Assembly: GCA_049860595.1 (NCBI GenBank)
Contig: CP187551.1
Direction: 5' to 3' (one strand)
DNA from: Methanocaldococcus sp. 16A
GTDB lineage: Archaea > AGJL01 > Methanococci > Methanococcales > Methanocaldococcaceae
Length of the DNA stretch: 64,000 nt
Under the pieces are notes generated by a model. The model worked only from the letters and a program-made list of their open reading frames with translations. It was not told the origin of the DNA and ran no database searches. This document shows, piece after piece, positions 39,504-59,980 of this stretch. How positions within the stretch are numbered: the stretch's first letter is position 1; the number at the start of each line of letters is the position of its first letter. The translations under genes were made by a program, and so were the position numbers.

Positions 39504-39527
39504 ATGCTAAATCCAATAATTTTATTT
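39504..39527 (+). other. orphan duplicate of the cobD 5' end (MLNPIILF)
   Basis: ATGCTAAATCCAATAATTTTATTT vs ATGTTAAATCCGATAATTCTATTT at 39587; 3 differences, all synonymous. Confidence 0.85.
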
Positions 39528-39555
39528 GAACCTTTTAAAAAAAGGTTCATCAAAA
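39527..39555 (-). repeat. palindrome module A
   Basis: Reverse complement TTTTGATGAACCTTTTTTTAAAAGGTTCA matches 59900-59928 except one compensatory pair. Confidence 0.85.
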
Positions 39556-39586
39556 TCACCTTAGATAGTTTTATAAGTGTGAAATT

Positions 39587-40510
39587 ATGTTAAATCCGAT
39601 AATTCTATTTTTAACTGTTATCTTTGATAGAATTATTGGAGAACTGCCAGAGAAAATTCATCCAACGGTTTGGATAGGGAATTTAATAGCTTTTTTAGAG
39701 AATATATTTAAATCTACAAATTGTAAAAATATATATAGAGATTTTTTATTTGGCATCTTAACTACAACTATAACAATAGGAGTTGTAGGAATTATATCAA
39801 TTTTTTTAGAAAAATTTATCTTATTATTGCCATTTCCTTTAAATTATCTTATCTATGCCTTTGTTTTATCAACAACCATTGGATACAAATCATTATTTGA
39901 GTTCTGCAGAAAGCCAATTGAATATATTAAAAATAAAGATATAGAGAAAGCGAGGGAAGCTGTTCAACACATTGTTAGCAGAGATGCATCAAAATTGGAT
40001 GAAGAGCATATACTATCAGCAGCAGTAGAGAGTTTGTCTGAAAACATAACTGATAGCATAATAGGGGCTTTATTCTATGCTATTATTTTTGGATTGCCTG
40101 GAGCTTTTGTATATAGAGCAATAAATACCTTAGATGCAATGATTGGCTATAAAAATGAAAAATATTTATGGTATGGAAAATTAGCAGCAAGATTAGATGA
40201 TATTGTCAATTTTATTCCATCAAGGATAGCGGGGATTTTGCTAATTATTGCTTCCCCATTTTATAAAGGAAATATCAAGAGAGCAATATATGGATTTTTA
40301 GAGGAAGCTAATAGAGTACCTTCACCAAATTCTGGATATACAATGGCTACATTAGCAAATGCTTTAAATATAACATTAGAAAAGATTGGATATTATAAAC
40401 TTGGTAGTGGAAAGATAGATGTTAAAAAATCTTTAAATGCATTTAAGGCCGTTGATTGTGTAGTAATTATATTTTTAATAATTTACAGTTTAATCTGGTG
40501 GGTATTATGA
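39587..40510 (+). CDS. cobD: adenosylcobinamide-phosphate synthase CbiB/CobD
   Basis: GE..HPTVWIG, VSRD, ESLSEN..D, YRAINTLDAMIGY, SPNSG. Confidence 0.93.
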   Translation: MLNPIILFLTVIFDRIIGELPEKIHPTVWIGNLIAFLENIFKSTNCKNIYRDFLFGILTTTITIGVVGIISIFLEKFILLLPFPLNYLIYAFVLSTTIGYKSLFEFCRKPIEYIKNKDIEKAREAVQHIVSRDASKLDEEHILSAAVESLSENITDSIIGALFYAIIFGLPGAFVYRAINTLDAMIGYKNEKYLWYGKLAARLDDIVNFIPSRIAGILLIIASPFYKGNIKRAIYGFLEEANRVPSPNSGYTMATLANALNITLEKIGYYKLGSGKIDVKKSLNAFKAVDCVVIIFLIIYSLIWWVL

Positions 40511-41580
40511 TGAACAAATCTCATTATCCATCAGAAGTTCCAGATGATAGATTTGAGGTTTTAAATAATCTTAAAGATTGTCAAAAGCCTATTAAAATTC
40601 TATTACTTGGAGGGGTTGATAGTGGCAAAACTACTCTAACTACTTTTTTAGCTAATGAACTTTTAAATTATGGCTTTAAAGTGTCTATAATTGATTGTGA
40701 TATTGGACAAAAAAGTATTTTACCTCCAGCAACTATAAGCTTATCATTTCCAGAAACAAATTTTAGCAATTTGTATGAAATTAAACCTTATAAAAGTTAT
40801 TTTGTTGGTTCAACAGCTCCAATTCAATTTTTTGGAGAGATGGTTGTAGGAACTAAGTTGCTGTGTGATTATGCCAAGGATAAGGCTGATGTTGTTATAG
40901 TTGATACCACTGGGTTGATATCAGGTTCTGGAGCTGATTTAAAGAGGATGAAAATAGAGATGATTAAGCCAGATATTATAATAGCATTGCAAAAAAGAAA
41001 TGAACTTAGACAGATATTAAAGCCCTTTGAAGATAAAATTAAGGTTTTTTACTTAAAAGTTTATGAAAATGCAAAATCATTTAGTAGGGAAGAGAGGAAA
41101 GAAATTAGAGCAGAAAAATGGAAAGAATACTTCAAAAACTCAAAAATTTATAATATTGGTTTTAATGATGTAGTTATTAGTGGAACTAAGATATTTCAAG
41201 GAGAGAAGATTTTGGAAGATGAAAAATACCTATTAGAATCACTTTTTAAATGGAAAATACTCTATGGAAGTAAATGTGAGGGAAGATATACAATAGTAAA
41301 AAGAGATTTGGTAAATATGCCAAGACAGGTTGATAAAAACATTCTATACTATATTGAGCCAGAAAGATTTAACAACTTAATAGTTGGATTGATTGATGAA
41401 GAGGGCTTTTGCATTGGATTGGGTATTTTAAAAGCTATTGATTTTGAGAATGAAACATTAGAGATTATATCACCAATAAATGAAGATGAAATTAAAAATC
41501 TTAAAGAAATAAGGTTTGGAAGAATAAAAGTTAATGAAAATGGGGAAGAACTTGGTTTATTAGATAGAGATTTAATATAG
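40507..41580 (+). CDS. Clp1/Grc3-like polynucleotide 5'-kinase
   Basis: GGVDSGKTT, DCDIGQ, DTTG, R.ER...R motif. Confidence 0.88.
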   Translation: MMNKSHYPSEVPDDRFEVLNNLKDCQKPIKILLLGGVDSGKTTLTTFLANELLNYGFKVSIIDCDIGQKSILPPATISLSFPETNFSNLYEIKPYKSYFVGSTAPIQFFGEMVVGTKLLCDYAKDKADVVIVDTTGLISGSGADLKRMKIEMIKPDIIIALQKRNELRQILKPFEDKIKVFYLKVYENAKSFSREERKEIRAEKWKEYFKNSKIYNIGFNDVVISGTKIFQGEKILEDEKYLLESLFKWKILYGSKCEGRYTIVKRDLVNMPRQVDKNILYYIEPERFNNLIVGLIDEEGFCIGLGILKAIDFENETLEIISPINEDEIKNLKEIRFGRIKVNENGEELGLLDRDLI

Positions 41581-41669
41581 GACTTTTGCAGTTTATATAA
41601 TTAATAAGAAACTTCGCATCTTTAGGTGTCTATATTCATATCAAAAATCATTCCTACGAAAGTCCTATA
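41576..41669. repeat. MJRE-like element, copy 4 (left arm supplies the Clp1 stop codon)
   Basis: TATAGGACTTTTGCAG ... CTACGAAAGTCCTATA. Confidence 0.88.
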
Positions 41670-41695
41670 ATATAATGTTTATAGATGTGAGATAT

Positions 41696-41938
41696 ATGCT
41701 TAAAGAATTATTAAATAAAATCTTTTGGCATCCTAAGTATAAAAAAGAAGATTTTGAAGTTATTATATTGCATAGAGGAGCTGAAGAAAATAAAAAAATC
41801 ATTCCTTTGGATGATGTTGAACTTAAAGGGAACTATCTGATATATTTTGATACCTATATTCCACTACATAGAATATTAGAGATTAGAAATAATAAGACTG
41901 GTGAAATTTTGTATAAGAAATTAGGTTTTCAAAAATAA
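41696..41938 (+). CDS. DUF504 / MJ1316-type RNA repair domain protein
   Basis: LNKIFWHP, HRGA, IPLHRILEI. Confidence 0.85.
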   Translation: MLKELLNKIFWHPKYKKEDFEVIILHRGAEENKKIIPLDDVELKGNYLIYFDTYIPLHRILEIRNNKTGEILYKKLGFQK

Positions 41939-43120
41939 CAACAACAAACCTGAAAATATTGCTAAGAAACTTCCATATAAAAATGTTATTTCTGGATTTA
42001 TTTTCCATAGATAACCAGCTATCAAACTTGCAGGTAAGCTCGTTAATCCTACTACAGTATAAAACAGCCCCAAAGCTGTAGCTCTAATATCTTCTGACGA
42101 TAAATCAGATACATAAGCTTTCTGATTTCCAGCAAATGAGGCATAGGCAATTCCATATAAAGCAAACAACAATATTAAGCTTTTTTGAGACATAAAGTAA
42201 GCAAATCCTAAAGAAGTAATTCCATAAAGTATATATCCTAACGTTAAAACACTTTTTCTTCCAATTTTGTCTGATAAAATTCCAAATGGGATTGAAAATG
42301 TGGCATAAAAGATGTTATATAAAATATAAAGAGCTATAGGAATTACAATAGCCATCTTCTCATCCACTATCATTAAAAATTCTTGAGCTCTTAAAATATA
42401 AAACATATAGCTAAAATTACTTAAAGTAAATATGGCTGAGATTAGAATAAATAGCTTTAACTCTTTTGACAAGTTTTTAATTCCAACTCTAAATGTTATT
42501 TTGTTATTATTATTGGAAACTATCTTTTTTTCTTTAACAAAGTATAAAGGAATTACAGCGAGAAATCCAATAACTGCTGCTATTAAAATTATCTGATTAA
42601 ATTTATACTGGAAAAATAATATACACAATAGCGAAATAGTAGAGCCCAATATAGCTCCTGCAGTATCAAAAGCTCTCTGTATTCCAAAACCTTTACCCAA
42701 AGTTTTAGGCATACTTTCAGATATTATTGCATCTCTTGGGGCAGTTCTTATTCCTTTTCCCATTCTTTCAAGGGATGAAAATATAATTGCCGATAACCAG
42801 CTTTTTGATAAACCTAATAGCAGTTTAAACATTGAAGATGTTAAGTAACCTAAAATGACAAATATCTTTCTTTTTCTTACTTTATCTGAATAATAACCAA
42901 TTAAAACCATCAAAATATTTGAGATAAATTCCCTCAGACCTCCAACTAAACCAATTGATAAACTTCCCCCTCCAAAACTTGTAATAAGCATTGGCAAAAT
43001 TGGCATTATCATCTCACTACTCATATCATTCAAAAAGCTTGTAAATCCTAATAAATAGACATTTTTAGATAATTCCTTATTATTCTTTTGTAAATTTTGT
43101 TTTTCCACATTTCTCACCAT
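41921..43120 (-). CDS. MFS transporter
   Basis: DMSSEM, ERMGKGIRTAPRDA, GILSDKIGRK. Confidence 0.92.
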   Translation of the reverse strand: MVRNVEKQNLQKNNKELSKNVYLLGFTSFLNDMSSEMIMPILPMLITSFGGGSLSIGLVGGLREFISNILMVLIGYYSDKVRKRKIFVILGYLTSSMFKLLLGLSKSWLSAIIFSSLERMGKGIRTAPRDAIISESMPKTLGKGFGIQRAFDTAGAILGSTISLLCILFFQYKFNQIILIAAVIGFLAVIPLYFVKEKKIVSNNNNKITFRVGIKNLSKELKLFILISAIFTLSNFSYMFYILRAQEFLMIVDEKMAIVIPIALYILYNIFYATFSIPFGILSDKIGRKSVLTLGYILYGITSLGFAYFMSQKSLILLFALYGIAYASFAGNQKAYVSDLSSEDIRATALGLFYTVVGLTSLPASLIAGYLWKINPEITFLYGSFLAIFSGLLLLFLKT

Positions 43121-43141
43121 AAAATAATGGAAAAGAAGTTA

Positions 43142-43171
43142 AATAGAATTTTCTCAATTTATATGCTTAAT
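43142..43171. repeat. degenerate MJRE-like left arm
   Basis: AATAGAATTTTCTCAATTTATATGCTTAAT vs copy 3 AATAGGACTTTCGCAGTTTATATGCTTAAT. Confidence 0.55.
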
Positions 43172-43229
43172 TATAAAGATTTTATTTCTATTTCTACAAA
43201 AATTTTATTAAAAAATAGTAATGGCTAAG

Positions 43230-43278
43230 TAATAGGACTCTCGCAGTTTATACATTTATTTTTGTGAGAGTCCTATTA
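43230..43278. repeat. MJRE-like element, copy 5 (internally deleted)
   Basis: TAATAGGACTCTCGCA ... TGTGAGAGTCCTATTA. Confidence 0.88.
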
Positions 43279-45081
43279 AGTAGAAACTTTTCTTGCAATG
43301 TATCCGCCTACAAACCCTATCAATCCTCCAACTATTGCAGATATGATGACAGCAATACCGTTATTTTGTTTTGTAGCAGTTTCTTCATTAGCACTAACAA
43401 TATTCTCATTTGTATTAATTATATTAATTTCATTCTCAAAACTTTCTTTAGTTCCTTTATTATCTTTATTCAACTCTTTTACCACATCTATATCCATTTG
43501 GGCATAGTAAGAGCTATATTTATAGTACATAATCTTTGATATGTTGTCATCTAAGCTATTTGCATATTCATAATAACCAAGGGCTGATATTGGAGTTATT
43601 CCTAAGTTTTCAGCCAAGTTTATTTTATTTCTTGAATATTTTTTTAAATATTCTATATCTCCAAATATAACTAATGGTATCTCTGCTTTTACGCAAGTGT
43701 CTATGCTTTTAGCTATTGCCAATAGATAATCTTTTTGATTATAAGCTTTTTTTGCAGATTCTAAATCATTTTCAAGCTCTCCAGTAACTAAGTTAGGATA
43801 TAATGTCTCTACATAAGTTGAAATTGTTTCAGCATTATCTAAATACTGCTGAGCTAAAGATTTTAATTTAGATTCAGATATTCTTTCACTTTCATTGTTT
43901 TCATATAAAGAAACCCACCACACTGCACTATCTCCTCTTAACTTTGCAAAGCTACCGTATTTTATTGCATCATCATAATGCCCTAAGTAATAGGATTTCC
44001 AAGCTTTGTCTAAGAGCTCTTCAGCTTCAGCAATTCTAACCCTTCCTGCCAGTATCTCTTCAAAGTTATCTACAGTTAAATTTTTTGAATAAACTACTTC
44101 TTTATCATAGTTTATCTTATTTTGAACATTTAAGAGGTAATTTTTTATATCTTCTTCACCAGTTAAGTATTTTAAGGTGTGTTCAATAGTTTCAAGTTTA
44201 ATTAATGCATTAAATGCTGAACATGTTGCAGAATAATATTTGTTATTAATATATTCTTGATTAGCTTTCTCTAATAAGGTTTTTGAAGCTGTTAGCTCAG
44301 ACAACAACATTTTTTGATATTCATAACTAACATACACATCCTCTAATTCTTTGGATACATTTTCATACTTTTTATTGGCTATTTTTAAGACTTCTTCACT
44401 TAATTGTTTCATTATTTTTTGGTATTTATCCTCAATAATAGGATTTTTAGGATATTCTTTCATCAAAATTTTTTTATTTGTAAAGTAAGGAATTGCATCA
44501 TAAATACTTCCAACTTCTATAACCTTAATCCCCAATTTTTTACCAAATTCTACTGCATCTACTTTATTACCATCAACTTCAATATACCTCTGCCCTTTTG
44601 GTATTAGCATAATTGTACAGTTTGCTTTTTTAGCTGCTTCTATTTTTTCCAAAATTCCTCCAACAGGTCCTATACTACCATCCGGATTTATTGCACCAGT
44701 CATCATAACATTTCTATTTAAAGTCCAATTCATTAATGCACAGATAATCCCTATAGTCATTGTTCCTCCTGCTGATGGCCCTCCAACAACTGGAACATCA
44801 CTTCTAACAATAATGTAGGTATTGTATTTGTTTATGTCTTTTCCTGTTACTTCTCCTGCCACTCTCGCAGCGATTCTTGCAGAGCCCTGCATGTCTAATT
44901 CAGTTAAAGGCATAGTATCCATGAAAACGTGCCCATCTCCTTCAGTAACATTTATTTGTATATTTATTGGAACCCCCACATATCCTACATCTGTTAAAGA
45001 CACTGCTGGAGCTTTTATAATTACTGCAAAAGCTGAATTTAAAAGAAATGTTATTAACAGCAAAGCCAGCATTTTTTTCAT
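43276..45081 (-). CDS. archaeal secreted Lon-like (S16) serine protease
   Basis: Signal peptide, [27 protein letters not shown]-terminal TM anchor. Confidence 0.88.
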
Positions 45082-45160
45082 AATCTCCCTCCAAATATTC
45101 ATAAAACTACATTAACAACATTAATACATAAATAATTAACCTTCCCATAAATAAAAATAG

Positions 45161-45271
45161 TATAGGACTTTCACAGTATATGTATTAAATTTGGAACTTT
45201 GACACTTTTAGGTATCTATATTCATAACATAAAATATAGAAATATAGTTTATTTCTCGTGAAAGTCCTATA
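45161..45271. repeat. MJRE-like element, copy 6
   Basis: TATAGGACTTTCAC ... GTGAAAGTCCTATA. Confidence 0.88.
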
Positions 45272-45294
45272 GTAAAGAAAATGTAGTGATGATT

Positions 45295-46754
45295 ATGGAA
45301 AGAGAAAGTTGGAGTACTAATTTGGGATTTATATTGGCAAGTGTTGGTTCCGCTATTGGATTAGGGAATATTTGGAGATTTGGATATATGGTTTATACAA
45401 ATGGTGGGGGGGCTTTTTTAATTCCTTATATAGTTGCTTTACTCTGTGTGTAGGGATTCTATTAATGGTTCTTGAATTTGCTATTGGGCATTATACAAAA
45501 AAATCTGCACCTTTAGCTTTAGAAAAATTATATAAGGGTTCAGAATGGGCAGGATGGTTTGCAGTTATTTCAGGGTTTATTATAACAAGTTATTATGTAG
45601 TTATCATAGCTTGGTGTCTCTATTATTTGATAATTTTAGTTATCTATGGCTACCCATCTGACCCTAATACTTATTTTTTCCATAATATATTGCAAATATC
45701 ATCTGGTGTGGAGGATATTGGTGGAATTTCTTATGGAATATTGGCATCTACTTTATTAGTTTGGGGAATTGTAGCTTTAATTATAAGTGCTGGAGTTAAA
45801 AATGGATTGGAAAAAGCAAATAAGATAATGATACCTTTCCTTTTGTTTTTAGTGATTTTGTTAGTTTTAAACGCTTTAACTTTGCCAGGGGCTTTAACTG
45901 GGATTGAGTGGTATCTAACTCCTAATTTTTCAGCACTACTTGATTACAATGTATGGTTAAGTGCATTTTCACAAATATTCTTCAGTTTATCTTTAGGATT
46001 TGGTATTTTAATTGCCTATGCAAGCTATCTACCTAAAAAAAGTGACTTAACAATAAATGCATTTACAGTATCTCTATTAAACTGTGGTTTCTCATTTTTG
46101 ACAGGTTTTGCAGTATTTGGGACACTTGGATATATGAGCTACATAAGTGGAATTCCTTTAGATAAAGTTGTTTCTGAAGGAATAGGATTGGCGTTTGTTA
46201 CATTTCCAAAGGCATTATCTCTATTACCATTTGGAAGTAAGATATTTGGGATAATATTCTTCTTAGCTTTGGTTTTTGCTGGAATATCATCAGCTGTTTC
46301 AATTGTAGAAGCTAGTGTCTCAGCAATTATGGATAAGTTTTCATTAAGTAGAAAAAAAGCTCTGCTCTATGTTTTAGCTTTATTTGTTATTATTTCACCA
46401 ATATTTACAACTGGAGCTGGGCTGTATTATTTAGACATCATTGACCATTTTGCTTCAGGATATCTCCTCCCAATAGCTGCAATTTTAGAAATTATAGTTG
46501 CTATATGGTTATTTGGTGGAGATAAGATTAGAGAGTATGTCAATAAACTTTCAGAGATAAAGTTAGGAGTCTGGTGGAACTACTCAGTAGGAATTGTTTC
46601 ACCAATGATATTAGCAGCTGTTGTGTTGTTAGACGCTTCAAATATCATAACATCAGGTTATGGAGGCTATAAAACAATATATGTTATATTGGGGGCTTTA
46701 GTTATTCCATTAACGTTTGTTATAAGTGTTATACTTCAAAGATTAAAAAAATAG
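45295..46754 (+). pseudogene. sodium-dependent NSS/SNF transporter, frameshifted near 45445-45453
   Basis: [29 protein letters not shown] ends at TAG 45451 after TGTGTG; the remainder continues in ORF 45372-46754. Confidence 0.85.
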
Positions 46755-46770
46755 AGTAGAGGGATAAAGA

Positions 46771-46893
46771 ATGAATCTTGGAGCAATAGCAATGTTTATA
46801 TTTGGTGCGGTAATTTTATGGGGAGGAGCAATTTATTTCTTATGGAGGTCTATGAAAAGTAAAAATAACATGAAAGAGGAAGAAACAAAGTAA
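46771..46893 (+). CDS. MetS-like NSS transporter small subunit (40 aa)
   Basis: MNLGAIAMFIFGAVILWGGAIYFLWRSMKSK..., SD-like GAGGGA, directly downstream of the NSS gene. Confidence 0.8.
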   Translation: MNLGAIAMFIFGAVILWGGAIYFLWRSMKSKNNMKEEETK

Positions 46894-46901
46894 TCATTTA
46901 T

Positions 46902-47303
46902 TTATACCATTCCAAAAACTTCAAAATATTTTTTCTGCCTAACAACCATTACTGGAATGTTGTTTTCTATTAATTTTTCTTTAAGTTCTTTATCATTTGT
47001 TGCTACAATGACATTTTCGTTTTCTTTTGCATAATTTAATATTGCTTCATCTGCATAACCTTCATGGTTAATTAATTTATAGTTTTTTATTTTTGCAAGA
47101 GCTAAATTAATTGCTAATTTTTCCTTACCTTTTAAATCTCCGCTTCTTAATAACTTCTCCAACTCTTCCTTTACAGGAGAGAGAATAACAATTTCAAATT
47201 TTGAATTTATAGCTCTTTCTATTTCATAATCAAAGTTTATCTTATGCTTAAAAACATAAATTAAAAAGTTAGTATCAGGAACTATTTTGTATATGGCTAT
47301 CAC
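46902..47303 (-). CDS. PIN-domain protein (Fcf1/VapC-like)
   Basis: VPDTNFL, EL, ADEAIL, VATNDKELK. Confidence 0.88.
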   Translation of the reverse strand: MIAIYKIVPDTNFLIYVFKHKINFDYEIERAINSKFEIVILSPVKEELEKLLRSGDLKGKEKLAINLALAKIKNYKLINHEGYADEAILNYAKENENVIVATNDKELKEKLIENNIPVMVVRQKKYFEVFGMV

Positions 47304-47319
47304 CCGAAATAATTATTCT

Positions 47320-47412
47320 AATAGAACTTTTGCAGGAAAAATTTTTTGATTGAATATAGACCTTTAGGTGTCAAAGCTCCTTATTTAATATATAAACTGC
47401 GAAAGTCCTATT
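47320..47412. repeat. MJRE-like element, copy 7
   Basis: AATAGAACTTTTGCAG ... CTGCGAAAGTCCTATT, central ACCTTTAGGT. Confidence 0.85.
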
Positions 47413-47421
47413 CTAAGAATT

Positions 47422-50451: not shown

Positions 50452-50460
50452 CCCCTAAAT

Positions 50461-51570
50461 TTAGAGTTTATTTGCATTAAAAAATTTTTTGTAATAGTTA
50501 TCTAATAGTTCTTTCCAATCTTCATTATTAACAAGAGATTTATACAAATTTAAAACCAAATCTCCATCAAGATTTTGTTTTTTAGCATAATCCAACAAAA
50601 GTTCTTTAATATTTATGGATTCAATGTCAATATCTTCTGAAATATCAATTAGTTCATCATCCACTACAACAACTTTATTAACTAAAATTTTTTCTTTTAA
50701 AGTCTCAAACCATGGTTTAAATTCTCTTTTAATCTTTCCAAAAACAATTGGTTTATTTTTGCATTTGTTTATCTTTTCTATAGCATCACTAAGAGTTTTT
50801 TGGTCTCTAATATTCACTTCTATAAATTCTCTACACTCAATATTAATTTTTTCAATATCATTAATGTCTAAAGAATTTTTACTAAAATCAACTAAATAAA
50901 AACCTTTTCCATTCTTTTTGTAATCTTCATACTCATTTCTATAAATAATTTCTGTTGAACCACCATAAGATAAAATTCCATCATTAAATCTCTCTAAAAT
51001 CCTATTATGTATATGCCCAAACGCATAGTAAGAAAATTTTGGTAAATCAAAATGCTCTAACTCATAATCAAATGGAATATATGGATTAATTCCCTGATGA
51101 AGCATCAATATTTTCTTTTTATATTTGTTAGATTCAACTTCAAATTTTTTTAATTTCTCTACTAATTCCTCTCTTTTGCTCTTTCTGTGATAGTATGTTC
51201 CACAGATAAATATCTCCTCTCCATTTACATTTATGACATCATAACCATTTAATATTTTAACATAGTCCTTTAATAAAGCTAATGGTGATTCTCTTCCCAA
51301 TCTTTTAGGCATTTCATGGTTTCCCCCAATAATATAAACTTTTATATTTTTCTCATGCAATTTTTTAAATGCCTGCATGGCTATTCTTAAAGCCTTTATT
51401 GGAGGCCTTAAATCATTAAATAAATCCCCACTATGCAAAACAACGTCTGGCTTTATTTCTAAAATTTCTTTTATACATGAAATAAATGAGTTGTATATGT
51501 CTTCCTCTCTTTCATCTAAATTATACTGTCTATAACCTAAGTGATTATCAGCTATATGAACAAACTGCAT
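50461..51570 (-). CDS. mre11: DNA double-strand break repair nuclease Mre11
   Basis: ADNHLG, SGDLF, GGNHE, GHIH; upstream of rad50. Confidence 0.95.
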   Translation of the reverse strand: MQFVHIADNHLGYRQYNLDEREEDIYNSFISCIKEILEIKPDVVLHSGDLFNDLRPPIKALRIAMQAFKKLHEKNIKVYIIGGNHEMPKRLGRESPLALLKDYVKILNGYDVINVNGEEIFICGTYYHRKSKREELVEKLKKFEVESNKYKKKILMLHQGINPYIPFDYELEHFDLPKFSYYAFGHIHNRILERFNDGILSYGGSTEIIYRNEYEDYKKNGKGFYLVDFSKNSLDINDIEKINIECREFIEVNIRDQKTLSDAIEKINKCKNKPIVFGKIKREFKPWFETLKEKILVNKVVVVDDELIDISEDIDIESINIKELLLDYAKKQNLDGDLVLNLYKSLVNNEDWKELLDNYYKKFFNANKL

Positions 51571-51609
51571 TACCTCACCTCATTTATAAAGTTTAGTTTA
51601 TAGGACTTC

Positions 51610-52304
51610 GAGACTGTCAAGATAAAGATTAAATAAATATGTGTAAATAAAGGAAGATATGAAACTTACGATAGAAATGTTAAAGGAAGGGATTAAGAAG
51701 ATAGTTAAAAGGAATAAGAAGTCGATAGAGATTAAAATTTTAGCTGGAATTTTGTATTATTTAGGATTATCGTTAAGAAAGGTTAGTTTGTTTCTTTCTC
51801 AATTTGAAAGTATAAGTCATGAATCGGTTAGAACATATTATCACAAGATTAAGGAGATTTTAAACGAGCCTGAAAGAAAGACAAGAAACCTAATAGCAAT
51901 CGATGAAACTAAACTAAAGATTGGAAATGAAACTATTTATGTATGGTCTGCTATCGATGTGGGTTCTAAAGAATGTTTAGGTATCTATGTCTCTAAAACA
52001 AGATGCTACCTCGATACAATCTTATTCGTAAAAAATATATTAAAATTTTGCTCGAATAAACCAAAGATTTTAGTCGATGGTGGCAAATGGTATCCGTGGG
52101 CACTGCAAAGATTAGGACTAAAATTCGAAAGAGTTCGATTCGGTTTAAGAAATTGTGTCGAAAGTTTCTTTTCCCTACTCAAACGAAGAACTAAATCTTT
52201 CTATAATCGATTCCCAAGTAATACTAAATTCTCAACCGTCATTAGCTGGCTCGTATCTTTCTCCTCTTTCTATAACTTCTTTCTCTCCTTATCTTGACAT
52301 CGTC
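51610..52304 (+). mobile_element. IS6-family insertion sequence (695 bp) with 9-bp target duplication TAGGACTTC
   Basis: TIRs GAGACTGTCAAGATAAAG / CCTTATCTTGACATCGTC; direct repeats at 51601-51609 and 52305-52313. Confidence 0.9.
51659..52297 (+). CDS. IS6-family DDE transposase
   Basis: [30 protein letters not shown]; stop codon inside the right TIR. Confidence 0.92.
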
Positions 52305-52478
52305 TAGGACTTCTAAAGGAATAAAAATCCATGAGGAAAGTTGATGCCTTTGAAAATCTAAATATCTTAACAAATATATAAGTGCGAAATTCCTATAATA
52401 GCAATATAAATTATTTTAGCATAAAATTTAAATATGTTAAATTTGCTTTAACAGTTTTTGATATCAATGGTGGTAATT

Positions 52479-53183
52479 ATGAGAGTTATAGGAGTTATAG
52501 GCTATAAGGATTCTGGTAAAACTACACTAATTGAAGAAATTTTAAAACAATCTGATAAAAAAATAGCTGTTATTAAACATGCAGGAGAAGATATAGAAGT
52601 AGATAGAGAAAAAACTGACACTTACAGACTATCAAATGCAGGGGCTAAAGTAACTGTTTTATCAACTGACAGCAAAACAGTATTTTTTACAGGTAAGATG
52701 GATTTAGAGAATATTTTAGCAGAGTTATCAGATTATGATATAGATTTTGTTATCATAGAAGGTTTTAAAGAAGCTTTAAAAAGATTAAATATTCCTAAGA
52801 TAGTTATGCTTAAAGATAAAGAGGGTAGTGAGCTAATTGATGAACATACAGCAATGGTAATTGAAGATTACAACTACAACATTGATGATGTTTTAAAGAT
52901 TATTTATGAAAAAGCTACAATCCCCACAATGAACTTAAACTGTAAACACTGCGGGTATAATTGTAAAACATTTGTTAAGGCAGTTGTTAAGGGAGAGGCT
53001 AAGTGGGATGATTGTGTATTAGCGAAAGGTATAAAAATAATTGTTGATGGTAAAATAATCCCGGCTGTTCCTTTTGTATCTAAGATTGTTGGTAACACAA
53101 TTAAAGCAATGGTTGAGTCATTAAAAGGTGTTGATAATCCAAAGACCATTAAGGTTGTGATTGACATTTCTAAGATAAAATAA
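52479..53183 (+). CDS. mobB: molybdopterin-guanine dinucleotide biosynthesis protein MobB with Fe-S domain
   Basis: GYKDSGKTT, VIKH, IIEGFK, CKHCGYNC..C. Confidence 0.9.
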   Translation: MRVIGVIGYKDSGKTTLIEEILKQSDKKIAVIKHAGEDIEVDREKTDTYRLSNAGAKVTVLSTDSKTVFFTGKMDLENILAELSDYDIDFVIIEGFKEALKRLNIPKIVMLKDKEGSELIDEHTAMVIEDYNYNIDDVLKIIYEKATIPTMNLNCKHCGYNCKTFVKAVVKGEAKWDDCVLAKGIKIIVDGKIIPAVPFVSKIVGNTIKAMVESLKGVDNPKTIKVVIDISKIK

Positions 53184-53334
53184 ACAAAACCAAAATATTT
53201 AAATACTAGTAGTGTATTATAGTAAAGTTGGTTACAATTTAAACATCAATATGAAGGAATATAAATTCCGCTGTATCTATAAATATTTTGTGATATATAA
53301 ATAAAAATATAAAAATATGCAGGTGAGGGATATC

Positions 53335-53604
53335 ATGGAGAAATACGAAAAAGCAGCAGAGATATTTAAGGCATTTGGAGACCCAACAAGATTAATGATT
53401 TTAAAGCTATTAGCTGAGAATGGAAGCATGTGTGTTTGTAAGATAATAGATGAATTAAAAAAGCCACAACCAACAATCTCACACCATTTAAACATTTTAA
53501 AGAAAGCTGGAATTGTTAAAGCAAGAAAAGAAGGAACATGGAACTTTTACTACATAGTTGATGATAGAGTTAAGGAAATTATCAAGTTAGTTGACGAATT
53601 ATAA
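53335..53604 (+). CDS. ArsR/SmtB family regulator
   Basis: FKAFGDPTRL, CVC, ISHHLNILKKAG. Confidence 0.92.
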   Translation: MEKYEKAAEIFKAFGDPTRLMILKLLAENGSMCVCKIIDELKKPQPTISHHLNILKKAGIVKARKEGTWNFYYIVDDRVKEIIKLVDEL

Positions 53605-53808
53605 ATTTCTCTTTTAAAATTTAAATTGAAGTGTTTTATTTTTTCTTTTTTAACTTTAAAAAATATTTATATCTTTTTTAGATTAATATTATAAATCCTT
53701 AGAAGCTTATATTGTAATTCTAATTAATGATATCAATTGCAATAATATTTAAATTTTATTTTAAATTTATAATTAATAACGAATTATTTTCATAATTAAG
53801 GTGAAATT

Positions 53809-54912
53809 ATGGGAATTGAAGAGGAAATTAGAAGAATAGAAGAGGAATTAAAAAAAACACCCTATAACAAAGCTACACAGAAACACATTGGTAGGTTGAA
53901 AGCTAAGTTGGCTAAATTGAGAGAGCAAGCACAAAGTAGAGGGGGAGGTGGAGGAGGTAAGGGATATGCTGTAAAGAAGAGTGGAGATGCTACTGCAGCT
54001 TTTGTAGGATTTCCATCTGTTGGAAAATCAACCTTGCTAAATAAATTAACAAATGCTAAATCAGAAGTCGGAGCTTATGCATTCACAACACTAACAATTG
54101 TTCCAGGAGTTTTAGAACATAAGGGAGCTAAAATTCAGCTTTTAGATGCGCCGGGAATTATTGTTGGAGCCTCATCAGGAAAAGGTAGAGGGACTGAGGT
54201 TTTATCTGCAGTAAGAAGTGCTGATTTAATTCTATTGACGGTTGATATTTACACCTTAGAACATCTTCCAGTTATTGAAAAAGAGCTTTACAATGTAGGA
54301 ATTAGATTAGACCAAAGACCGCCAGATGTTAAAATTAAAGTTAAAGATAGAGGAGGGATTGATGTTAGCTCAACCGTTCCATTAACACATATAGACGAAG
54401 ATACGATTGAAGCAATCTTAAATGAATATAGAATACATAATGCAGATGTTGTTATAAGGGAGGATATAACATTAGAACAATTTATTGATGTTGTAGCAGG
54501 GAATAGAGTTTATATCCCGTCTTTAGTAGTTGTAAATAAGATAGACTTAGCAGATGAGGAATATCTAAAATATATAAAACAAAAATTAGAGGAATTTGGT
54601 AAAGAGTATGTTTTAGTTTCAGGAAATAAAAATATTAATTTAGATTTATTGAAAGATAAAATCTATGAAAAGTTAGGATTTATAAAGATTTATTTAAAAC
54701 CACAAGGAAAAAAGCCAGATTTCGATGAACCACTGATTATGAGAAAGGGGGCTACTGTAAAGGATGTTTGTGAGAAGTTGCATAAAGATTTTGTTAGGAA
54801 TTTTAGATATGCTCAAGTATGGGGAAAGTCTGCAAAACATCCTGGGCAGAGAGTTGGATTAGACCATAAATTAGAGGACGAGGATATTTTAACAATTGTT
54901 ATAATAAAATAA
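53809..54912 (+). CDS. DRG/OBG-family GTP-binding protein
   Basis: NKATQKHIGRLKAK, GFPSVGKST, YAFTT, NKID, TGS domain. Confidence 0.93.
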   Translation: MGIEEEIRRIEEELKKTPYNKATQKHIGRLKAKLAKLREQAQSRGGGGGGKGYAVKKSGDATAAFVGFPSVGKSTLLNKLTNAKSEVGAYAFTTLTIVPGVLEHKGAKIQLLDAPGIIVGASSGKGRGTEVLSAVRSADLILLTVDIYTLEHLPVIEKELYNVGIRLDQRPPDVKIKVKDRGGIDVSSTVPLTHIDEDTIEAILNEYRIHNADVVIREDITLEQFIDVVAGNRVYIPSLVVVNKIDLADEEYLKYIKQKLEEFGKEYVLVSGNKNINLDLLKDKIYEKLGFIKIYLKPQGKKPDFDEPLIMRKGATVKDVCEKLHKDFVRNFRYAQVWGKSAKHPGQRVGLDHKLEDEDILTIVIIK

Positions 54913-55008
54913 TTATCGAAATAATAAAAAATAGAGAGAATATCAATAAAGAAAGCAGAACACTCTATAGAATAAGAGGCAGAGACCTATGGTTTGGGAG
55001 ATGAAAGT

Positions 55009-55893
55009 ATGGAGATTGAAGGCTATGAAAAAATTATAGAGGCGGGAAAAATAGCTTCTAAGGTTAGAGAAGAAGCAACAAAACTAATAAAACCAGGAGT
55101 TAAGTTATTAGAAGTTGCTGAATTTGTTGAAAATAGAATTAGAGAGTTAGGAGGAGAACCTGCTTTTCCATGCAACATATCAATTAATGAGATAGCTGCC
55201 CATTATACACCAAAATTGAATGATAACTTAGAGTTTAAAGAGGAAGATGTTGTTAAATTGGATTTAGGAGTTCATGTAGATGGATATATTGCAGATACAG
55301 CAATAACAGTAGATTTATCAAACTCTTATAAAGATTTGGTAAAAGCTTCTGAAGATGCATTAAACACAGTTATTAAAGAGATAAATCCACCAATGAACAT
55401 TGGAGAGATGGGAAGAATTATTCAAGAGGTTATTGAAAGTTATGGCTATAAACCAATTTCCAATCTCTCTGGACATGTAATGTATAGATATGAGTTGCAT
55501 ACAGGAATAAGCATACCAAACGTTTATGAACGAACAAATCAATATATTGATGTTGGAGATTTAGTGGCTATAGAACCATTTGCAACAGATGGATTTGGTA
55601 TGGTTAAAGATGGAAATCTTGGGAATATTTATAAGTTCTTAGCTAAGAGACCTATTAGATTGCCACAAGCAAGAAAACTTTTAGATGTTATATCAAAAAA
55701 CTATGCCTATTTACCATTTGCTGAGAGATGGGTTTTAAAAAGTGAGAGTGATAGGTTAGCTTTAAACTCTTTAATAAGAGCATCTTGCATATATGGGTAT
55801 CCAATATTGAAAGAGAGAGAAAATGGTATAGTTAGCCAAGCAGAGCACACAATATTAATAACTGAAAACGGCGTTGAGATAACAACAAAATAG
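55009..55893 (+). CDS. map: methionine aminopeptidase type II
   Basis: [41 protein letters not shown]. Confidence 0.96.
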
Positions 55894-55907
55894 ATTATGG
55901 TGATAAG

Positions 55908-56474
55908 ATGATTGTTATTTTAGACAATGGAGGACAGTATGTTCATAGAATACACAGAAGTTTAAAATATATTGGAGTTAGCTCAAAAATTATCCCAAAT
56001 ACAACACCATTAGAAGAAATTGAAAGTAATGAAGAGGTTAAAGGGATAATATTAAGTGGAGGTCCAGATATAGAAAAAGCAAAGAGCTGTATAGATGTTG
56101 CTTTAAATGCAAAACTTCCTATTTTAGGGATTTGTTTAGGGCATCAGTTAATTGCATTAGCATATGGTGGAGAAGTTGGGAGGGCTGAAGCTGAAGAATA
56201 TGCATTAACAAAAGTTTATGTTGATAAGGAAAATGATTTGTTCAAAAATGTTCCAAAGGAGTTTAATGCATGGGCTTCACATAAGGATGAAGTTAAAAAA
56301 ATCCCAGAAGGTTTTGAAATTTTAGCTCATTCAGATATATGTAATGTTGAGGCAATGAAGCATAAAACAAAACCAATTTATGGTGTTCAATTCCATCCTG
56401 AAGTGGCACATACAGAATACGGAAGTGAAATTTTGAAAAACTTTTGTAAGGTTTGCGGTTATAATTTTGAATAA
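55908..56474 (+). CDS. guaAA: GMP synthase glutamine amidotransferase subunit A
   Basis: DNGGQY, LSGGP, GICLGHQ, QFHPEV. Confidence 0.95.
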
Positions 56475-56541
56475 TAACAAAATTTATATATGCTGATAAC
56501 AACATATATCTAAATAATTCAAATCTTTTTTGGTGGGATTA

Positions 56542-57108
56542 ATGCCATTATTACTAATTGTTGTTGGTTTAATCATCACATTGATTATTTTAGGTATTGT
56601 AATTTATGTTATCTCAATATATAACAGATTTCAGACATTAAAAAATGGGGCTGAAGCAACATTAGGACAGATAAGAGTAGCTTTAAAAAAGAGATTGGAT
56701 ATGATTAATCAGCTTGTTGAAGCGGTTAAAAGCTATGCAAGTTTTGAGAAGGAGACATTAACAAAAATAACTGAATTAAGAAGTAGTGTTTTAAAGGCAA
56801 ACACAACAGAAGAAATTCAAAATATTGAGAGAGAATCAAGAAATATTTTGGGAAATATTTTAGTTGCTGTTGAAAACTATCCAGAGTTAAAAACATCTGA
56901 GACAGTTAAAGAACTAATGAAAGCTATAAGAGAGATAGAGGATGAGATTGCAAGACATAGATACACATACAACAATATAGTTCAGGAATTTAACACAAAA
57001 ATTGATGTGTTCCCTTCAAATATTGTAGCAAATATATTTGGATTTAGAAAGATGGATTACTTACAGTTTGAAGAAGAAATCTACGAAAGACCTAAAATTA
57101 ACTTTTAA
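56542..57108 (+). CDS. lemA: LemA family protein
   Basis: N-terminal TM, YN..., [22 protein letters not shown]. Confidence 0.92.
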
Positions 57109-57132
57109 ATTTTTTAATTTTGAGGGATTTTT

Positions 57133-58977
57133 ATGAGAGAAGAAAAGAAAATGGTTATCTTTTGCATAGTTATTTTTGTTGTTGGAGTTTTAGGCATATT
57201 ATTTGTAAATTCAGATATATTTAGTTACTCTTCTGATGTTTATGTCAAAAATTATGAAGCAAATCTATATATTGACAAAAACTTAACCTTAGAGGAATCA
57301 TATACCTATGAAATTTTAGCAAATAAAAAATATAAAATGCTATATAGAGATTGGAAGGTCCCACTAACATATAATGAAACCTTAAAAACTCCTTATGTGG
57401 AGTTATTGAATCTTTCAGCATTTTCAAAAAATATGTATGGTTATGTTGTAGATTATAAAGGAAGAGTATATCTTTTTGGTGGGGATACCATAGTTAAATA
57501 TAATCTTCTAAGTCTTATAAATTACTACAACATAAAGAATGAAGTAGGTTTTTACAATCCAAACCATTACGGTGTAGGTAATTATAATATGCATTATAAA
57601 TTTTTTATTTATCCACCAATTGAAACAGACAATAAAACATCTCACATAAATTTATTGATAGCAGATGAACACATACCTTACGAAAATGTGAAAATAAACA
57701 TAATTGATAAAAATAAAAGTATTTTAAATTTATTTGTCTATCCAGATACATACAAAGTACACAAAACTAGTTTTGGTTATGTTATTGAAGGTAAAAGTGG
57801 AAAAGATGAGCCTATAGAGTTAGAATTTCTTTTAAAACCAAATACAGTTAATGGTTATGTAACCTATTATGGTTATATAGCAGATGTCAGAGAGAAAACA
57901 ATTTCAGCATATAGAAACTATCAAATGATAAACAATTTTTCAATAATATTGAAATACTTCCTAATGTTTTTAATATTAGTATTTCCTTTGATAGCCTACT
58001 ATATATATTTAAAATATGGAAAGGAGAAATTTTATGTTGTTCCAGAGTATTTAAGCTATGTTCCAAACAAAAATAGAAAGCCATGGGTAGTTAATCTTAT
58101 ATTTAATGGTGAAGTGGGAAATTTTGATAAAAATGGATTTTATGCTACATTATTAGATTTACATAATAGAGGCTACATAAAGATAATTAGGGATAACGGA
58201 GATATAAAAATAAAAATTTTAAAGAAAGATGAAGAATTAAATGATTTAGACCTATATGAGAAAGAAGTTATGGACTTTTTGATTAGATATGCTAAAGATG
58301 ATGAGTTCAATCCAAAAGACCTTGAAAATTCTATTTCAAAGGTAAGAGATGAATATAAAATTAAAAGGTTGTGGAATGAGATTAATAGCGTTATGAAATA
58401 TCCTCCATTTTCATCAACATTAACAAAGATGTTCTTAGAAACAAAAGGTAAAGATATATTATGGATATCTTTGGCTGTCTCTATAGGATTGGCGTTAATT
58501 TTATTTGGTATCTCAATGAATTACTCTAAATACTACCCAGCACTTAAAGATATTCCATATCTCTCAATTATCTTAGTTATACAGAACATAATATTGATAT
58601 TAACTCCAAAATCTCTATTTGGAAGATGGAAAAACGACTACTATAAAGAAAAACTTGAATGGGATGCATTTAAAAAATTTCTATCTGACCTTGCGATGAT
58701 TAAAAAATATTCTCCAGAAGATATTTCAATTTGGAAAGATTGGTTAATATATGGAACTGCTTTAGGCGTGGGAAATAAAGTTGTAGAGGCTATGAAATCA
58801 TTAAATATAAATATTCCTGAAGCAGATATAGCTCCAGCAGTTTATATTGCATATGGTTCAATGTATTCTTCCATAAATAATGCTTATAGCTCTACTGTCG
58901 CAAGTTCTTCTTCAAGTTCTATTGGTGGCTTTGGAGCTGGAGGAGGATTTGGTGGCGGTGGAGGAGGAGCAAGATAA
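57133..58977 (+). CDS. DUF2207 membrane protein
   Basis: [23 protein letters not shown], Gly-rich tail [12 protein letters not shown]; downstream of lemA. Confidence 0.88.
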
Positions 58978-58990
58978 ATAGAGGGAAATT

Positions 58991-59755
58991 ATGGAAAAAA
59001 AGGTTATAATAGTTGGAGCAGGTCCAGGGGACCCAGAGTTAATAACAATCAAAGGTAAAAAGGCAATAGAAGAGGCAGATGTTATTATTTATGCTGGCTC
59101 GTTAGTTAATGAAAAGCTTTTAGAATATAACAAAAAAAATGCTGAAATTTACAACAGTGCAAATATGGATTTAGAAGAAATTGTTAATGTAATGGTTAAA
59201 GCAGTTGAACAAGGAAAAAAAGTTGTTAGATTGCACACAGGAGACCCATCTATTTATGGAGCTATAAAGGAGCAGATTGATGAATTAGCAAAACATGGAA
59301 TAGATGTTGAAATAATTCCAGGAGTTAGTTCTTTATTTGCAGCAACTGCATCATTGAAGGTTGAACTAACTCTTCCAGAAGTCTCTCAGACAGTTATTAT
59401 TACAAGACCTGAAGGAAGAACCCCAATGCCAGAAAAAGAAAAGCTTAGAGATTTGGCTAAGCACCAATCAACAATGGCTATTTTTTTAGGAGTTTCAATG
59501 ATTGATAAAGTTGTTAAAGAACTAATTGAGGGAGGTTATAAAGAAGAAACTCCTGTAGCTGTTGTATATCACGCCTCATGGGATGATGAGAAAATTGTTA
59601 AAGGAACTTTAAAAGATATTGCTGAAAAGGTAAAAAAAGAGGGGATTAAAAAAACTGCCTTAATAATTGTTGGAGAAGTTTTAAATCCTAAGCATTATGC
59701 ATATTCAAAACTTTACGATAAAGAATTTGAGCATGGATACAGAAAGAAAAAATAA
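58991..59755 (+). CDS. cbiF: cobalt-precorrin-4 C11-methyltransferase
   Basis: VGAGPGDPELIT, YAGSLV, RLHTGDPSIYGA, SQTVIITR, SKLYD.F.HGYR. Confidence 0.94.
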   Translation: MEKKVIIVGAGPGDPELITIKGKKAIEEADVIIYAGSLVNEKLLEYNKKNAEIYNSANMDLEEIVNVMVKAVEQGKKVVRLHTGDPSIYGAIKEQIDELAKHGIDVEIIPGVSSLFAATASLKVELTLPEVSQTVIITRPEGRTPMPEKEKLRDLAKHQSTMAIFLGVSMIDKVVKELIEGGYKEETPVAVVYHASWDDEKIVKGTLKDIAEKVKKEGIKKTALIIVGEVLNPKHYAYSKLYDKEFEHGYRKKK

Positions 59756-59929
59756 TTTTGATGATGAAACTTTTTTTAAAAGCATAGAAGGAAACCCTCT
59801 ATTGCTATACACCACGTCCATTAAGTTGCCCCTAAAAGGGGCAATTAATGTCCAATATTATTGTGAGGCATTTCCGAGCGTAGCGAGGCAATGCATCCGT
59901 TTTGATGAAACTTTTTTTAAAAGTTTCAT
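59756..59929. repeat. composite hairpin cassette (partial module A, module B reversed, hairpins C and D, module A)
   Basis: TGATGAAACTTTTTTTAAAAG occurs twice; ATAGAAGG-AAA-CCCTCTAT; TTGCCCCT-AAA-AGGGGCAA; GCATTTCC-GAGCGTAGCGA-GGCAATGC. Confidence 0.85.
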
Positions 59930-59932
59930 TTA

Positions 59933-59980
59933 AAGCTCTACAACAAAGAGTTTGAGCATGGCTATAGAAAAAAGAAATGA
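59933..59980 (+). other. orphan duplicate of the cbiF 3' end (KLYNKEFEHGYRKKK*)
   Basis: 14/15 aa identical to 59708-59755 with 10 nt differences in 48. Confidence 0.9.

Follow-up and report, generated by a model that had tools for sequence, protein, structure and literature searches.

Short palindromic modules scattered over the chromosome of Methanocaldococcus sp. 16A (genome G000, with chromosome C1 and plasmid C2) are flanked by long direct duplications of variable length, and where such a duplication spans the end of a gene an intact gene and a displaced, orphan copy of its terminus lie on either side of the hairpin. The reading we favour, and consider fairly probable, is that the modules are non-autonomous elements whose insertion in itself gives the duplication, the two copies later being reshaped by conversion and recombination.

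When the window (the whole stretch of DNA analysed, 64 kb) was searched with the pattern of a 29-nt hairpin, referred to as M1, two exact matches were obtained, one on each strand (Table 1), with 0 expected from 100 shuffles. These are the near-identical palindromes described in an earlier note on this DNA, at exactly the positions given there, and their sole difference is a single compensatory pair (GAAAC/GTTTC versus GAACC/GGTTC). DNA folding gave a 10-bp stem in both (-7.6 and -8.4 kcal/mol; z -4.1 and -4.6). No Rfam family reached the gathering threshold in the window, and around the cbiF element and a 333-nt element of the sister species (G011) only sub-threshold chance matches appeared; no tRNA was found within the 64 kb.

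Table 1. Features of the cobD locus, the cbiF locus and the site near 6479 (window coordinates)
Feature	Position	Strand	Remark
GC-rich palindromic module ending ...CTCTATG	6441..6477 (hairpin ends approximate)	+	Foot joins next sequence near 6479
AcnX-family gene, upstream of cobD	38208..39425	+	3' end remodelled in G000
Degenerate GC palindromic module, CCATAGAG...CTCTATAC type	39469..39493	-	First of two insertions at the AcnX/cobD junction
Orphan cobD 5' end: ATG and 7 codons, old ribosome-binding site upstream	39504..39527	+	Foot-side duplication copy
M1 29-nt AT hairpin, C-G variant pair	39527..39555	-	3' foot adjoins cobD orphan
31-nt spacer, hairpin 5' side to intact cobD start	39556..39586	+	
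Intact CobD_Cbib gene	39587..40510	+	First 24 nt are the second duplication copy
Intact TP_methylase (cbiF-like) gene	58991..59755	+	Final ~50 nt form the copy of the duplication at the 5' side of the element
Partial first M1 copy (5' tail, 5' arm, loop)	59756..59782	+	Left copy of ~24-nt duplication
Three nested GC-rich hairpin modules: CATAGAAGG..., GTCCATTAAG...GGAC, GAGGCA...TGCATCCG	59783..59899	+	Fold -19.5 kcal/mol, z -3.7; no Rfam family
Complete M1 29-nt hairpin	59900..59928	+	3' foot adjoins cbiF orphan
Orphan cbiF 3' end, ~16 codons and TGA	59929..59980	+	

The orphan termini that the note had reported at cobD and cbiF are both present, each starting at the 3' foot of a hairpin. At cobD the orphan differs from the intact start in 3 of 24 bases, all synonymous, and is identical (24/24) to the single-copy cobD start of two relatives, G001 and G015. 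Aligned across genomes, the locus has the compact, ancestral junction in 11 relatives, the AcnX stop overlapping the cobD ATG (TAATG), and it is filled in G000 and G011 only, the same two genomes that carry the degenerate GC module.

At cbiF, 51 nt of the orphan could be aligned with the intact gene, showing 10 differences, 8 of them at third codon positions, and a stop codon that is kept (TGA in the orphan, TAA in the gene). The orphan of G011 begins at the same foot and has only about 20 nt left, and in G010 and G007 cbiF reads into the element, which supplies the stop codon. The ~24-nt duplication in front of the GC-rich modules was made when these entered M1; the same nested architecture is found at C1:627666, C1:433426 and C1:1064464 and at the cobD locus of G011. 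Of the two further 3'-foot joins claimed in the note, the one near 6479 stands and the one at 59783 does not, the latter being the nesting point inside the partial M1 copy. Past the foot of the hairpin at 6479 the sequence likely repeats, in diverged form, the first part of the gene that lies on the module's 5' side (compared by eye, unscored), and the orthologous site in G011 (1430243) has a full two-hairpin unit with an identical junction.

The genome holds 13 sites of the 29-nt hairpin, and at 6 of them an orphan gene or tRNA end was seen by eye right behind the foot. Seven modules were catalogued with blastn-short and nhmmer at 7-14 copies each, a search too insensitive for a census. A unit consists of one or two hairpins and measures about 30-72 nt, and units are commonly nested or chained as arrays. 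Their ends are defined, the 5' end being ...AAGAGGCA, TTTACACC or TTTTGATG and the 3' end ...CCCTATGG or ...AAAGTTTCA followed by 0-6 nt, and a 34-nt insertion at C1:11577 is a copy with an internal deletion in which both ends are retained. In two-hairpin units the ends are unlike each other; single hairpins are palindromes, so that inverted ends are trivial in them. The modules probably correspond to the MJRE repeats of Methanocaldococcus jannaschii, to which they were matched by description and not by consensus; Suyama, Lathe and Bork reportedly distinguished three groups of these, MJRE1-3, in 2005 (FEBS Lett). A review presents them as small palindromic repeats, extragenic and abundant in the genus, which are sometimes fused into coding regions.

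Orphan gene ends were searched for throughout the genome by aligning the last 90 nt of each ORF to the 600 nt downstream, with the reverse complement as control. A score of at least 36 was reached by 23 of 1602 ORFs as against 2 on the control, so duplicated gene ends exceed chance. Removal by eye of CRISPR repeats and paralogues left 12 genes with a diverged orphan 3' end, and in 11 of these GC-rich or AT palindromic modules lie in between. In a census of adjacent flank repeats, confined to 15 multi-motif clusters and with clearly incomplete cluster detection, such repeats accompanied 5/15 clusters compared with 3/150 random intergenic sites, 0/60 copies of MITE-A and 0/12 of MITE-B. The gene at C1:823820 gets its stop codon from the element. 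The same duplications were found in independently assembled relatives, which argues against an assembly chimera, an objection the note had raised itself, and its description of a recurrent, gene-preserving phenomenon delimited by the hairpin foot is supported across the genome.

The whole chromosomes of G000 and G011 were then compared for insertions of 25-400 nt containing modules, with a flank repeat defined as at least 12 nt at 75% identity or more. Among 22 polymorphic module insertions, 14 have a flanking direct duplication of 12-76 nt whose sequence is single-copy in the other genome, leaving a clean empty site there; the remaining eight, several of them within arrays, lack a long duplication (0-11 nt in six, negative in two). 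The same pipeline applied to two classical TIR MITE families gave 1/49 and 1/41 (Fisher p=1.4e-10 versus modules), and a TnpB-derived element in the comparison shows a duplication of 1 nt. Duplication lengths show no clustering visible to the eye. The duplicated targets are also non-coding: modules inside M1 duplicate 8-24 nt of M1, and the 3' end of a tRNA (C1:627.6k) and intergenic DNA are among the targets. The orphans are therefore most likely long target-site duplications, given duplication in 14 of 22 insertions, non-coding targets included, versus 2 of 90 for the MITEs.

The duplications are polar, the 3' hairpin foot being turned towards the orphan in all 22 cases that could be scored by eye, a regularity for which the explanation proposed here offers no account. 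In 14 oriented empty sites, likewise inspected by eye, neither microhomology at the junctions nor a conserved motif at either boundary of the duplication was seen. The shared 'TTCA|' junction signal of the earlier note is merely the 3' end of the element, next to junctions lacking a conserved motif, and the illegitimate join that it proposed finds no microhomology to rest on; nor are 14 duplications against 2 small adjacent deletions among the 22 insertions expected from such joins.

An enzyme-free origin, in which a nascent strand during replication or gap repair copies a hairpin elsewhere, leaves it at the foot and resumes 12-76 nt back, would agree with a polar process, with the varying length of the duplication, with a sharp foot junction accompanied by frequent extra bases or spacer on the 5' side, and with the lack of any transposase candidate. 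We consider it unlikely, as the junctions show no microhomology, the flanks of a donor are never co-copied, nested insertions occur at one point of M1 in several independent cases, and the 5' end is fairly constant, the internally deleted copy retaining both ends. In one insertion the two copies are identical (43/43 nt), with 2 sites differing from the G000 single copy; the nearest other G011 copy of its element is 91% identical, and a search for a donor with shared flank found none. The identity of this pair may reflect conversion and not youth.

Searches for an enzyme gave no match in G000 to Y1_Tnp (PF01797), which does have matches in three of 17 Methanocaldococcus genomes, in one with in-frame stops, and the one IS200/IS605 copy that was read has end hairpins different from the modules, so the analogy to HUH/Y1 enzymes drawn in the note fails. 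Y2_Tnp gave 0 matches, but the control of that search was silent everywhere too. No autonomous element with ends 0.4-7 kb apart and flanking repeats was detected in G000 or G011. A diversity-generating retroelement, which would bring a reverse transcriptase and adenine-specific differences between its repeats, was rejected, there being no match to a reverse transcriptase (RVT_1) in G000, mostly synonymous third-position differences, and 5'-end and non-coding targets besides. Integration by Cas1, as CRISPR off-target or casposon-like events, was likewise rejected: it needs a length set by a ruler, whereas the duplications here measure anything between 12 and 76 nt. The sole Cas1 match (C1:682308-683108) lies about 2.7 kb from CRISPR repeats (C1:~685.8-686.5k).

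The modules might also be remnants of larger virus or plasmid integrants that used a gene end as attachment site and were internally deleted down to the hairpin. The duplicated tRNA 3' end at C1:627.6k is a classical integrase target and plasmid C2 carries tyrosine integrases, but a matching attachment site would be needed for each of dozens of targets, 5'-end, intergenic and hairpin targets do not fit, the repeat length is not fixed, and integrase fragments or cargo are absent from all loci read. The loop motif occurs at 12 loci in viral contigs, all in unrelated sequence of 45-71% GC, and the module motif is absent from genuine relatives among these contigs. We regard such an origin as highly improbable.

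Several features of the copies count against the reading we favour. Over 582 sites the left and right copies agree with each other but not with the empty allele at 15, with 49 changes unique to the left copy and 27 to the right. The distance from a copy to the single copy of the sister equals that to its twin, a pattern that is not clock-like and implies either that the insertions date far back and some of the empty sites are revertants or that alleles have come in from outside. Unique changes number 27 in intact copies versus 12 in the empty allele (p=0.012). Differences between copies fall at third codon positions in 48 of 73 cases (p=2e-4 against a rough 45% expectation for a neutral orphan), with 39 synonymous versus 20 non-synonymous codons, and conversion together with recombination could be the source of this coding-like divergence. 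A mutational gradient along the duplication, of the kind left by error-prone gap filling or single-strand damage, was not found (mismatch 0.12-0.16 per quarter).

At C1:687342 the allele types of intact and orphan copy are swapped between G000 and G011, and at this locus at least the two copies are different allele types that each occur as single copies in other species, so recombination with relatives shapes the copies. Within G004 and within G014 the two copies co-vary, which, like the swap, speaks for exchange after insertion. The single-copy allele resembles the left copy leftward and the right copy rightward (68 concordant versus 26 discordant site pairs).

These exchanges bear on the mechanism of the earlier note, in which DNA of a related lineage, carrying a gene end and an element ending at the foot, enters by a homologous crossover in the gene and an illegitimate join at the foot, leaving the resident end as orphan. 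Recombination with relatives does shape the copies, and at C1:687342 the left copy and spacer are G001-like and the right copy and flank G015-like; the coding-like differences and the excess over expectation of unique differences in intact copies fit as well, and two module insertions whose duplications measure just 2-6 nt, situated immediately behind a stop codon or in another place, are possible donors. As the origin of the duplications, import with a join defined by the hairpin is not upheld. Non-coding hairpin targets are duplicated too, with no gene to rescue, duplications exceed deletions, joins lack microhomology, the orphan start is constant across deep lineages at three loci and one pair is fully identical. 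If one copy were foreign and the other resident, the orphan should be nearer the sister allele than the intact copy, but over eight classified events the differences from the sister single copy were unique to the intact copy in 27 instances and to the orphan in another 27. We judge an origin by import quite improbable.

In the reading we favour, insertion would make a flanking duplication of 12-76 nt, possibly up to ~90 nt, each end of the element being joined to a different strand of the target, at points separated by 12-76 nt, and the interval being copied by gap repair; a mobilising enzyme would act in trans. Where the stretch spans a gene end, the copy continuous with the gene body would keep the gene whole and the other copy, adjoining the 3' hairpin foot, would become the orphan. 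After insertion, gene conversion could swap sequence between the two copies, either of which could be overwritten, up to the boundary of the element, by recombination with element-free alleles, and recombination between the copies would delete the element precisely, a route by which copies are probably lost. Conversion, overwriting and excision would together make the copies diverge in a coding-like manner and leave the elements patchily distributed among species.

No report of long flanking duplications at such repeats was found in the full-text literature searched, and we know of none at MJREs. REP/BIME/REPIN-RAYT and IS200/IS605 elements insert beside a fixed tetra- or pentanucleotide with no target duplication. 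The modules resemble REP/RAYT and IS200/IS605 in their hairpin-defined ends, arrays and intergenic location, and probably in a single-strand or structure-dependent recognition, but differ in having 12-76 nt duplications as a rule, no visible target motif and no Y1_Tnp match in G000. With LINE/SINE target-primed reverse transcription they seem to share variable duplications, a precise 3' and looser 5' junction and polarity; RVT_1 however has no match in G000 and there is no sign of an RNA intermediate. Cas1-Cas2 and casposons give a long, fixed duplication set by a ruler, of CRISPR repeat length in the former and about 14-15 bp in casposons. Here, too, short DNA is integrated with a long target duplication, but the length varies about six-fold. 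Free-standing homing-endonuclease inserts of fungal mitochondria (e.g. Allomyces atp6) encode an endonuclease and bring in a foreign gene end; there, too, a gene that stays whole has a diverged copy of its own terminus behind it, displaced and beside a mobile insert, whereas the modules lack an ORF and local duplication is better supported for them. Target duplications of MITEs are 2-10 bp according to one source (PMC11602168). Like classical TIR MITEs the modules are short, non-autonomous, many-copy and present or absent between species, but their duplications are long and variable, and the two MITE families of these genomes stay in the usual range.

More tentatively, the modules may represent a new class of archaeal non-autonomous transposons, moved by an undescribed polar reaction that joins the 3' foot and the 5' end 12-76 nt apart on opposite strands, protects gene ends, provides a route of precise excision and would need some as yet unrecognised enzyme, acting in trans or belonging to the host, with no HUH enzyme or reverse transcriptase. 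Among the transposition chemistries described, none known to us yields a stagger of 12-76 nt. If the long polar duplication is intrinsic to insertion, it would point to a mechanism of DNA joining that none of the compared transposition chemistries gives, and this in a well-studied archaeal genus. Those who annotate such genomes may take orphan fragments for pseudogenes or for scars of recombination. The reading frame of some genes continues into an element and borrows its stop codon, and it would be wrong to infer a simple gain from whether or not a locus carries an element. The proposed mechanism would, if true, render insertions reversible through the long duplication and explain how insertions in the first or last codons of essential genes are tolerated in an ORF-dense genome, that of G000 being about 89% covered by ORFs.

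The two 29-nt palindromes (AT hairpins) that the earlier note had reported at the cobD and cbiF loci were both found in place, on opposite strands, and are distinguished solely by one compensatory base pair. Both fold as DNA hairpins with a stem of 10 bp, and a search of the window allowing up to 3 mismatches returned only these 2 matches (0 expected). The orphans, i.e. diverged stray copies of a gene end, were likewise confirmed at both loci, each starting at the 3' end (3' foot) of the hairpin. At cbiF the hairpin is interrupted, and the interruption is a nested insertion that duplicated ~24 nt of the hairpin.

Coordinates of features in the window, in the source genome (G000) and in its sister species (G011); C1, chromosome
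Feature	Position	Remark
Orphan copy of first 8 CobD_Cbib codons	window 39504-39527	upstream of intact gene
29-nt palindrome, cobD locus	window 39527-39555 (-)	
CobD_Cbib gene, intact	window 39587-40510	
TP_methylase (cbiF-like) gene, intact	window 58991-59755	
Partial first copy of interrupted 29-nt hairpin, cbiF locus	window 59756-59782	
Three GC-rich hairpin modules, cbiF locus	window 59783-59899	between partial and complete hairpin
29-nt palindrome, cbiF locus	window 59900-59928 (+)	
Orphan of last ~16 TP_methylase (cbiF-like) codons and stop	window 59929-59980	downstream of intact gene
First TIR MITE family (A), ~90-100 nt		ends TAGGACTTTCGCAG...CTGCGAAAGTCCTA; 49 scorable insertions
Second TIR MITE family (B), ~110 nt		ends TAGTTGTGTGCAAAA...TTTTGCACACAACTA; 41 scorable insertions
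Example TIR MITE sites	G000 C1:95412, 294762; G011 C1:83928, 717167	
tnpB-related repeat sites	G000 C1:452671-452717 and C1:483046-483091	
GC-rich ~213-nt repeat	G011 C1:65927-66139	
IS200/IS605 copy, complete tnpA+tnpB	G011 C1:829713-831249	
CRISPR arrays	G000 C1:~47.2-51.1k, 521k, 542k, 686k, 998k	single repeat type GTTTCCATACCG[A/T]ATCGGTCTGA...

The G000 chromosome harbours about 13 sites of the 29-nt hairpin, and reading of these revealed an orphan gene or tRNA end right after the foot at 6 of the 13. In addition, a hairpin-blind screen took 1602 ORFs with a length of 80 aa or more and aligned the 3'-terminal 90 nt of each to the 600 nt that follow, giving 23 alignments scoring at least 36 compared with 2 on the reverse-complement control. 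After removal by eye of tandem paralogues and of CRISPR repeats, the several arrays having appeared as spurious ORFs, a diverged orphan 3' end remained for 12 genes, located 25-225 nt downstream at 80-93% identity. Palindromic modules lie between the two copies in 11 of these genes and a classical MITE together with an apparent hairpin relic in the twelfth; one 5'-end case also came out of the screen. The same 3' screen on G011 gave 10 matches, 6 of them module-associated. Outside this genus, many module-like matches occur in a second genus (two genomes) and a third (one genome). The observation of orphan gene ends beside hairpins stands.

The whole chromosome of G011, the closest relative, was compared with G000 by blastn (mean identity 87.7% in HSPs of at least 250 nt), where collinear alignments that overlap in one genome and lie apart in the other mark, in the latter, an insertion that has on either side a copy of a sequence present once in the former. 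Indels of 25-400 nt were scored uniformly by two-anchor alignment, a duplication being at least 12 nt at 75% identity or more. Flanking duplications of 12-76 nt were found for 14 of 22 hairpin-module insertions, against 1/49 for MITE family A (TAGGACTTTCGCAG-type ends) and 1/41 for family B (TAGTTGTGTGCAAAA-type ends; Fisher p=1.4e-10, modules versus both families pooled), 3/28 for unclassified and 0/12 for mixed insertions. Both TIR MITE families, which are highly polymorphic genome-wide between the two chromosomes, have target duplications that are short or unmeasurable, the norm for MITEs being 2-10 bp according to a 2024 survey (PMC11602168). At five loci, cobD of G011 among them, modules sit inside the AT hairpin and 8-24 nt of the hairpin is duplicated; duplication also affects the 3' end of a tRNA and plain intergenic DNA. 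The duplication is independent of genes, and the simplest reading of the orphan gene ends is that they are those target-site duplications of unusual length which chance to cover a gene terminus.

At G000 C1:627560-627900 the 3' end of a tRNA gene and ~30-55 nt downstream of it are present as a diverged duplication, the array between the copies consisting of four modules nested in the AT hairpin. At G011 C1:36111-36443 (L032:16111-16443) a 333-nt insertion, on whose flanks 55 nt of the 3' end of a gene are duplicated, has its module hairpin split around a GC-rich, probably structured core of ~270 nt. Beyond this copy, the core occurs at least 5 times in G011 and is absent from G000; the insertion gave no match in Rfam.

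When the loci were read for orientation, the element was sense at 15 of 15 distinct 3'-end loci (11 in G000 and 4 more in G011) and antisense at all seven 5'-end loci, so that in 22/22 the intact gene lies on the 5' side of the element and the orphan at its 3' foot. Symmetric selection for intact genes does not predict this polarity. At G011:26677 the duplicated stretch also holds the 3' end of the neighbouring gene on the foot side. Neither a target motif nor microhomology was seen at either duplication boundary, nor a mismatch gradient along the duplication.

The cobD junction is compact in 11 other genomes of the genus, where the stop codon of the AcnX-family gene overlaps the cobD ATG, insertions there being confined to G000 and G011. 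Two are present, one a degenerate GC module and the other the AT hairpin, with further modules nested in the hairpin in G011. The G000 orphan is identical at 24 of 24 positions to the single-copy cobD start of G001 and G015, and the three synonymous changes sit in the intact copy, not in the orphan. In the 11 relatives (L115-L126) the overlap reads TAATG, corresponding to 39412-39430 in the window, and it would permit coupled translation; in G000 and G011 the two insertions put ~160-320 nt between the genes, and the AcnX gene acquires a new C-terminal tail.

The cbiF site is empty and clean in G016, G012, G001 and two genomes of another genus, and filled in G000, G015, G010 and G007, with differing module sets, the codons at which the orphan begins being the same. 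Only ~20 nt of the orphan is left in G011, at the same foot, and half a hairpin in G008. In G010 (L006) and G007 (L007) cbiF reads into the element and terminates at the TGA of its TTTTGATG. An element-supplied stop codon is also used at G000 C1:823820-824479, and such stops result in lineage-specific C-terminal tails.

The earlier note had proposed that DNA of a relative, ending at a hairpin, was integrated by one homologous crossover and one hairpin-defined join. The origin of the long duplications is better accounted for in another way than by this import, although recombination with other alleles reshapes the copies. At C1:687342 one element with one junction is common to G000, G011 and the distant G004 and G014, the site being empty in 13 other genomes. 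The allele types there are swapped between G000 and G011, the type in the intact position of G000 being that in the orphan position of G011 and the reverse. The copies co-vary inside G004 and inside G014, and in G000 the left copy and spacer are G001-like, the right copy and flank G015-like. At C1:289348 the orphan is almost identical to the intact copy in G011, not in G000, and an SMC-like gene carries the AT hairpin in G000 and G006 and a different two-hairpin unit in G010, with the same orphan start. These comparisons, together with the counts that follow, point to old insertions and to gene conversion between the copies.

Three-way counts (14 events, 582 sites) showed the copies agreeing against the empty allele at 15 sites, with 49 left-unique and 27 right-unique; the 8 classifiable events gave 27 intact-unique, 27 orphan-unique and 12 empty-unique sites. 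The copies depart from simple duplicate-pair evolution. The empty allele tends to match the left copy leftward and the right copy rightward (68 versus 26 site pairs, which are non-independent). The whole set of results also points either to overwriting of the copies from the outer flank by element-free alleles or to empty alleles that are revertants of inter-copy recombination. Either process would bring in differences pre-selected in a functional gene. Third codon positions hold 48 of the 73 differences between copies, and we infer that this coding-like divergence arises because differences so supplied had already passed such selection, which is the weakest point of the reading. One G011 pair is identical at 43/43 positions, which is no proof of a recent event since the closest other copy of its element is only 91% identical and the identity of the pair may reflect conversion.

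Searches of G000 for enzymes gave no match to Y1_Tnp or RVT_1 and revealed three TnpB genes, one Cas1 match ~2.7 kb from a CRISPR array, and tyrosine integrases confined to the plasmid C2. Y1_Tnp was found in 3 of 17 genomes of the genus, in one with in-frame stops. The IS200/IS605 copy of G011, whose tnpB 3' end recurs ~230 nt downstream as a perfect 85-nt repeat, carries end hairpins unlike those of the modules, and in G000 and G011 no module ends were found to enclose a long element. Over ~46 nt the GC-rich ~213-nt repeat matches the 3' end of two tnpB genes, and it is probably a TnpB/IS605-derived miniature element; in the comparison of G000 with G011 its insertion involves an overlap of 1 nt, in keeping with an IS200/IS605 derivative.

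At all module loci paired compensatory changes distinguish the stems of different copies, the 12-nt loop GAGCGAAGCGAG being near-constant, which suggests recognition of structure plus loop. In behaviour they resemble REP or MITE-type palindromic repeats, and they are probably the MJRE elements, judged from the description of the latter in a review. In the literature searched no description was found of a long, variable and polar target duplication together with its effect on gene ends.
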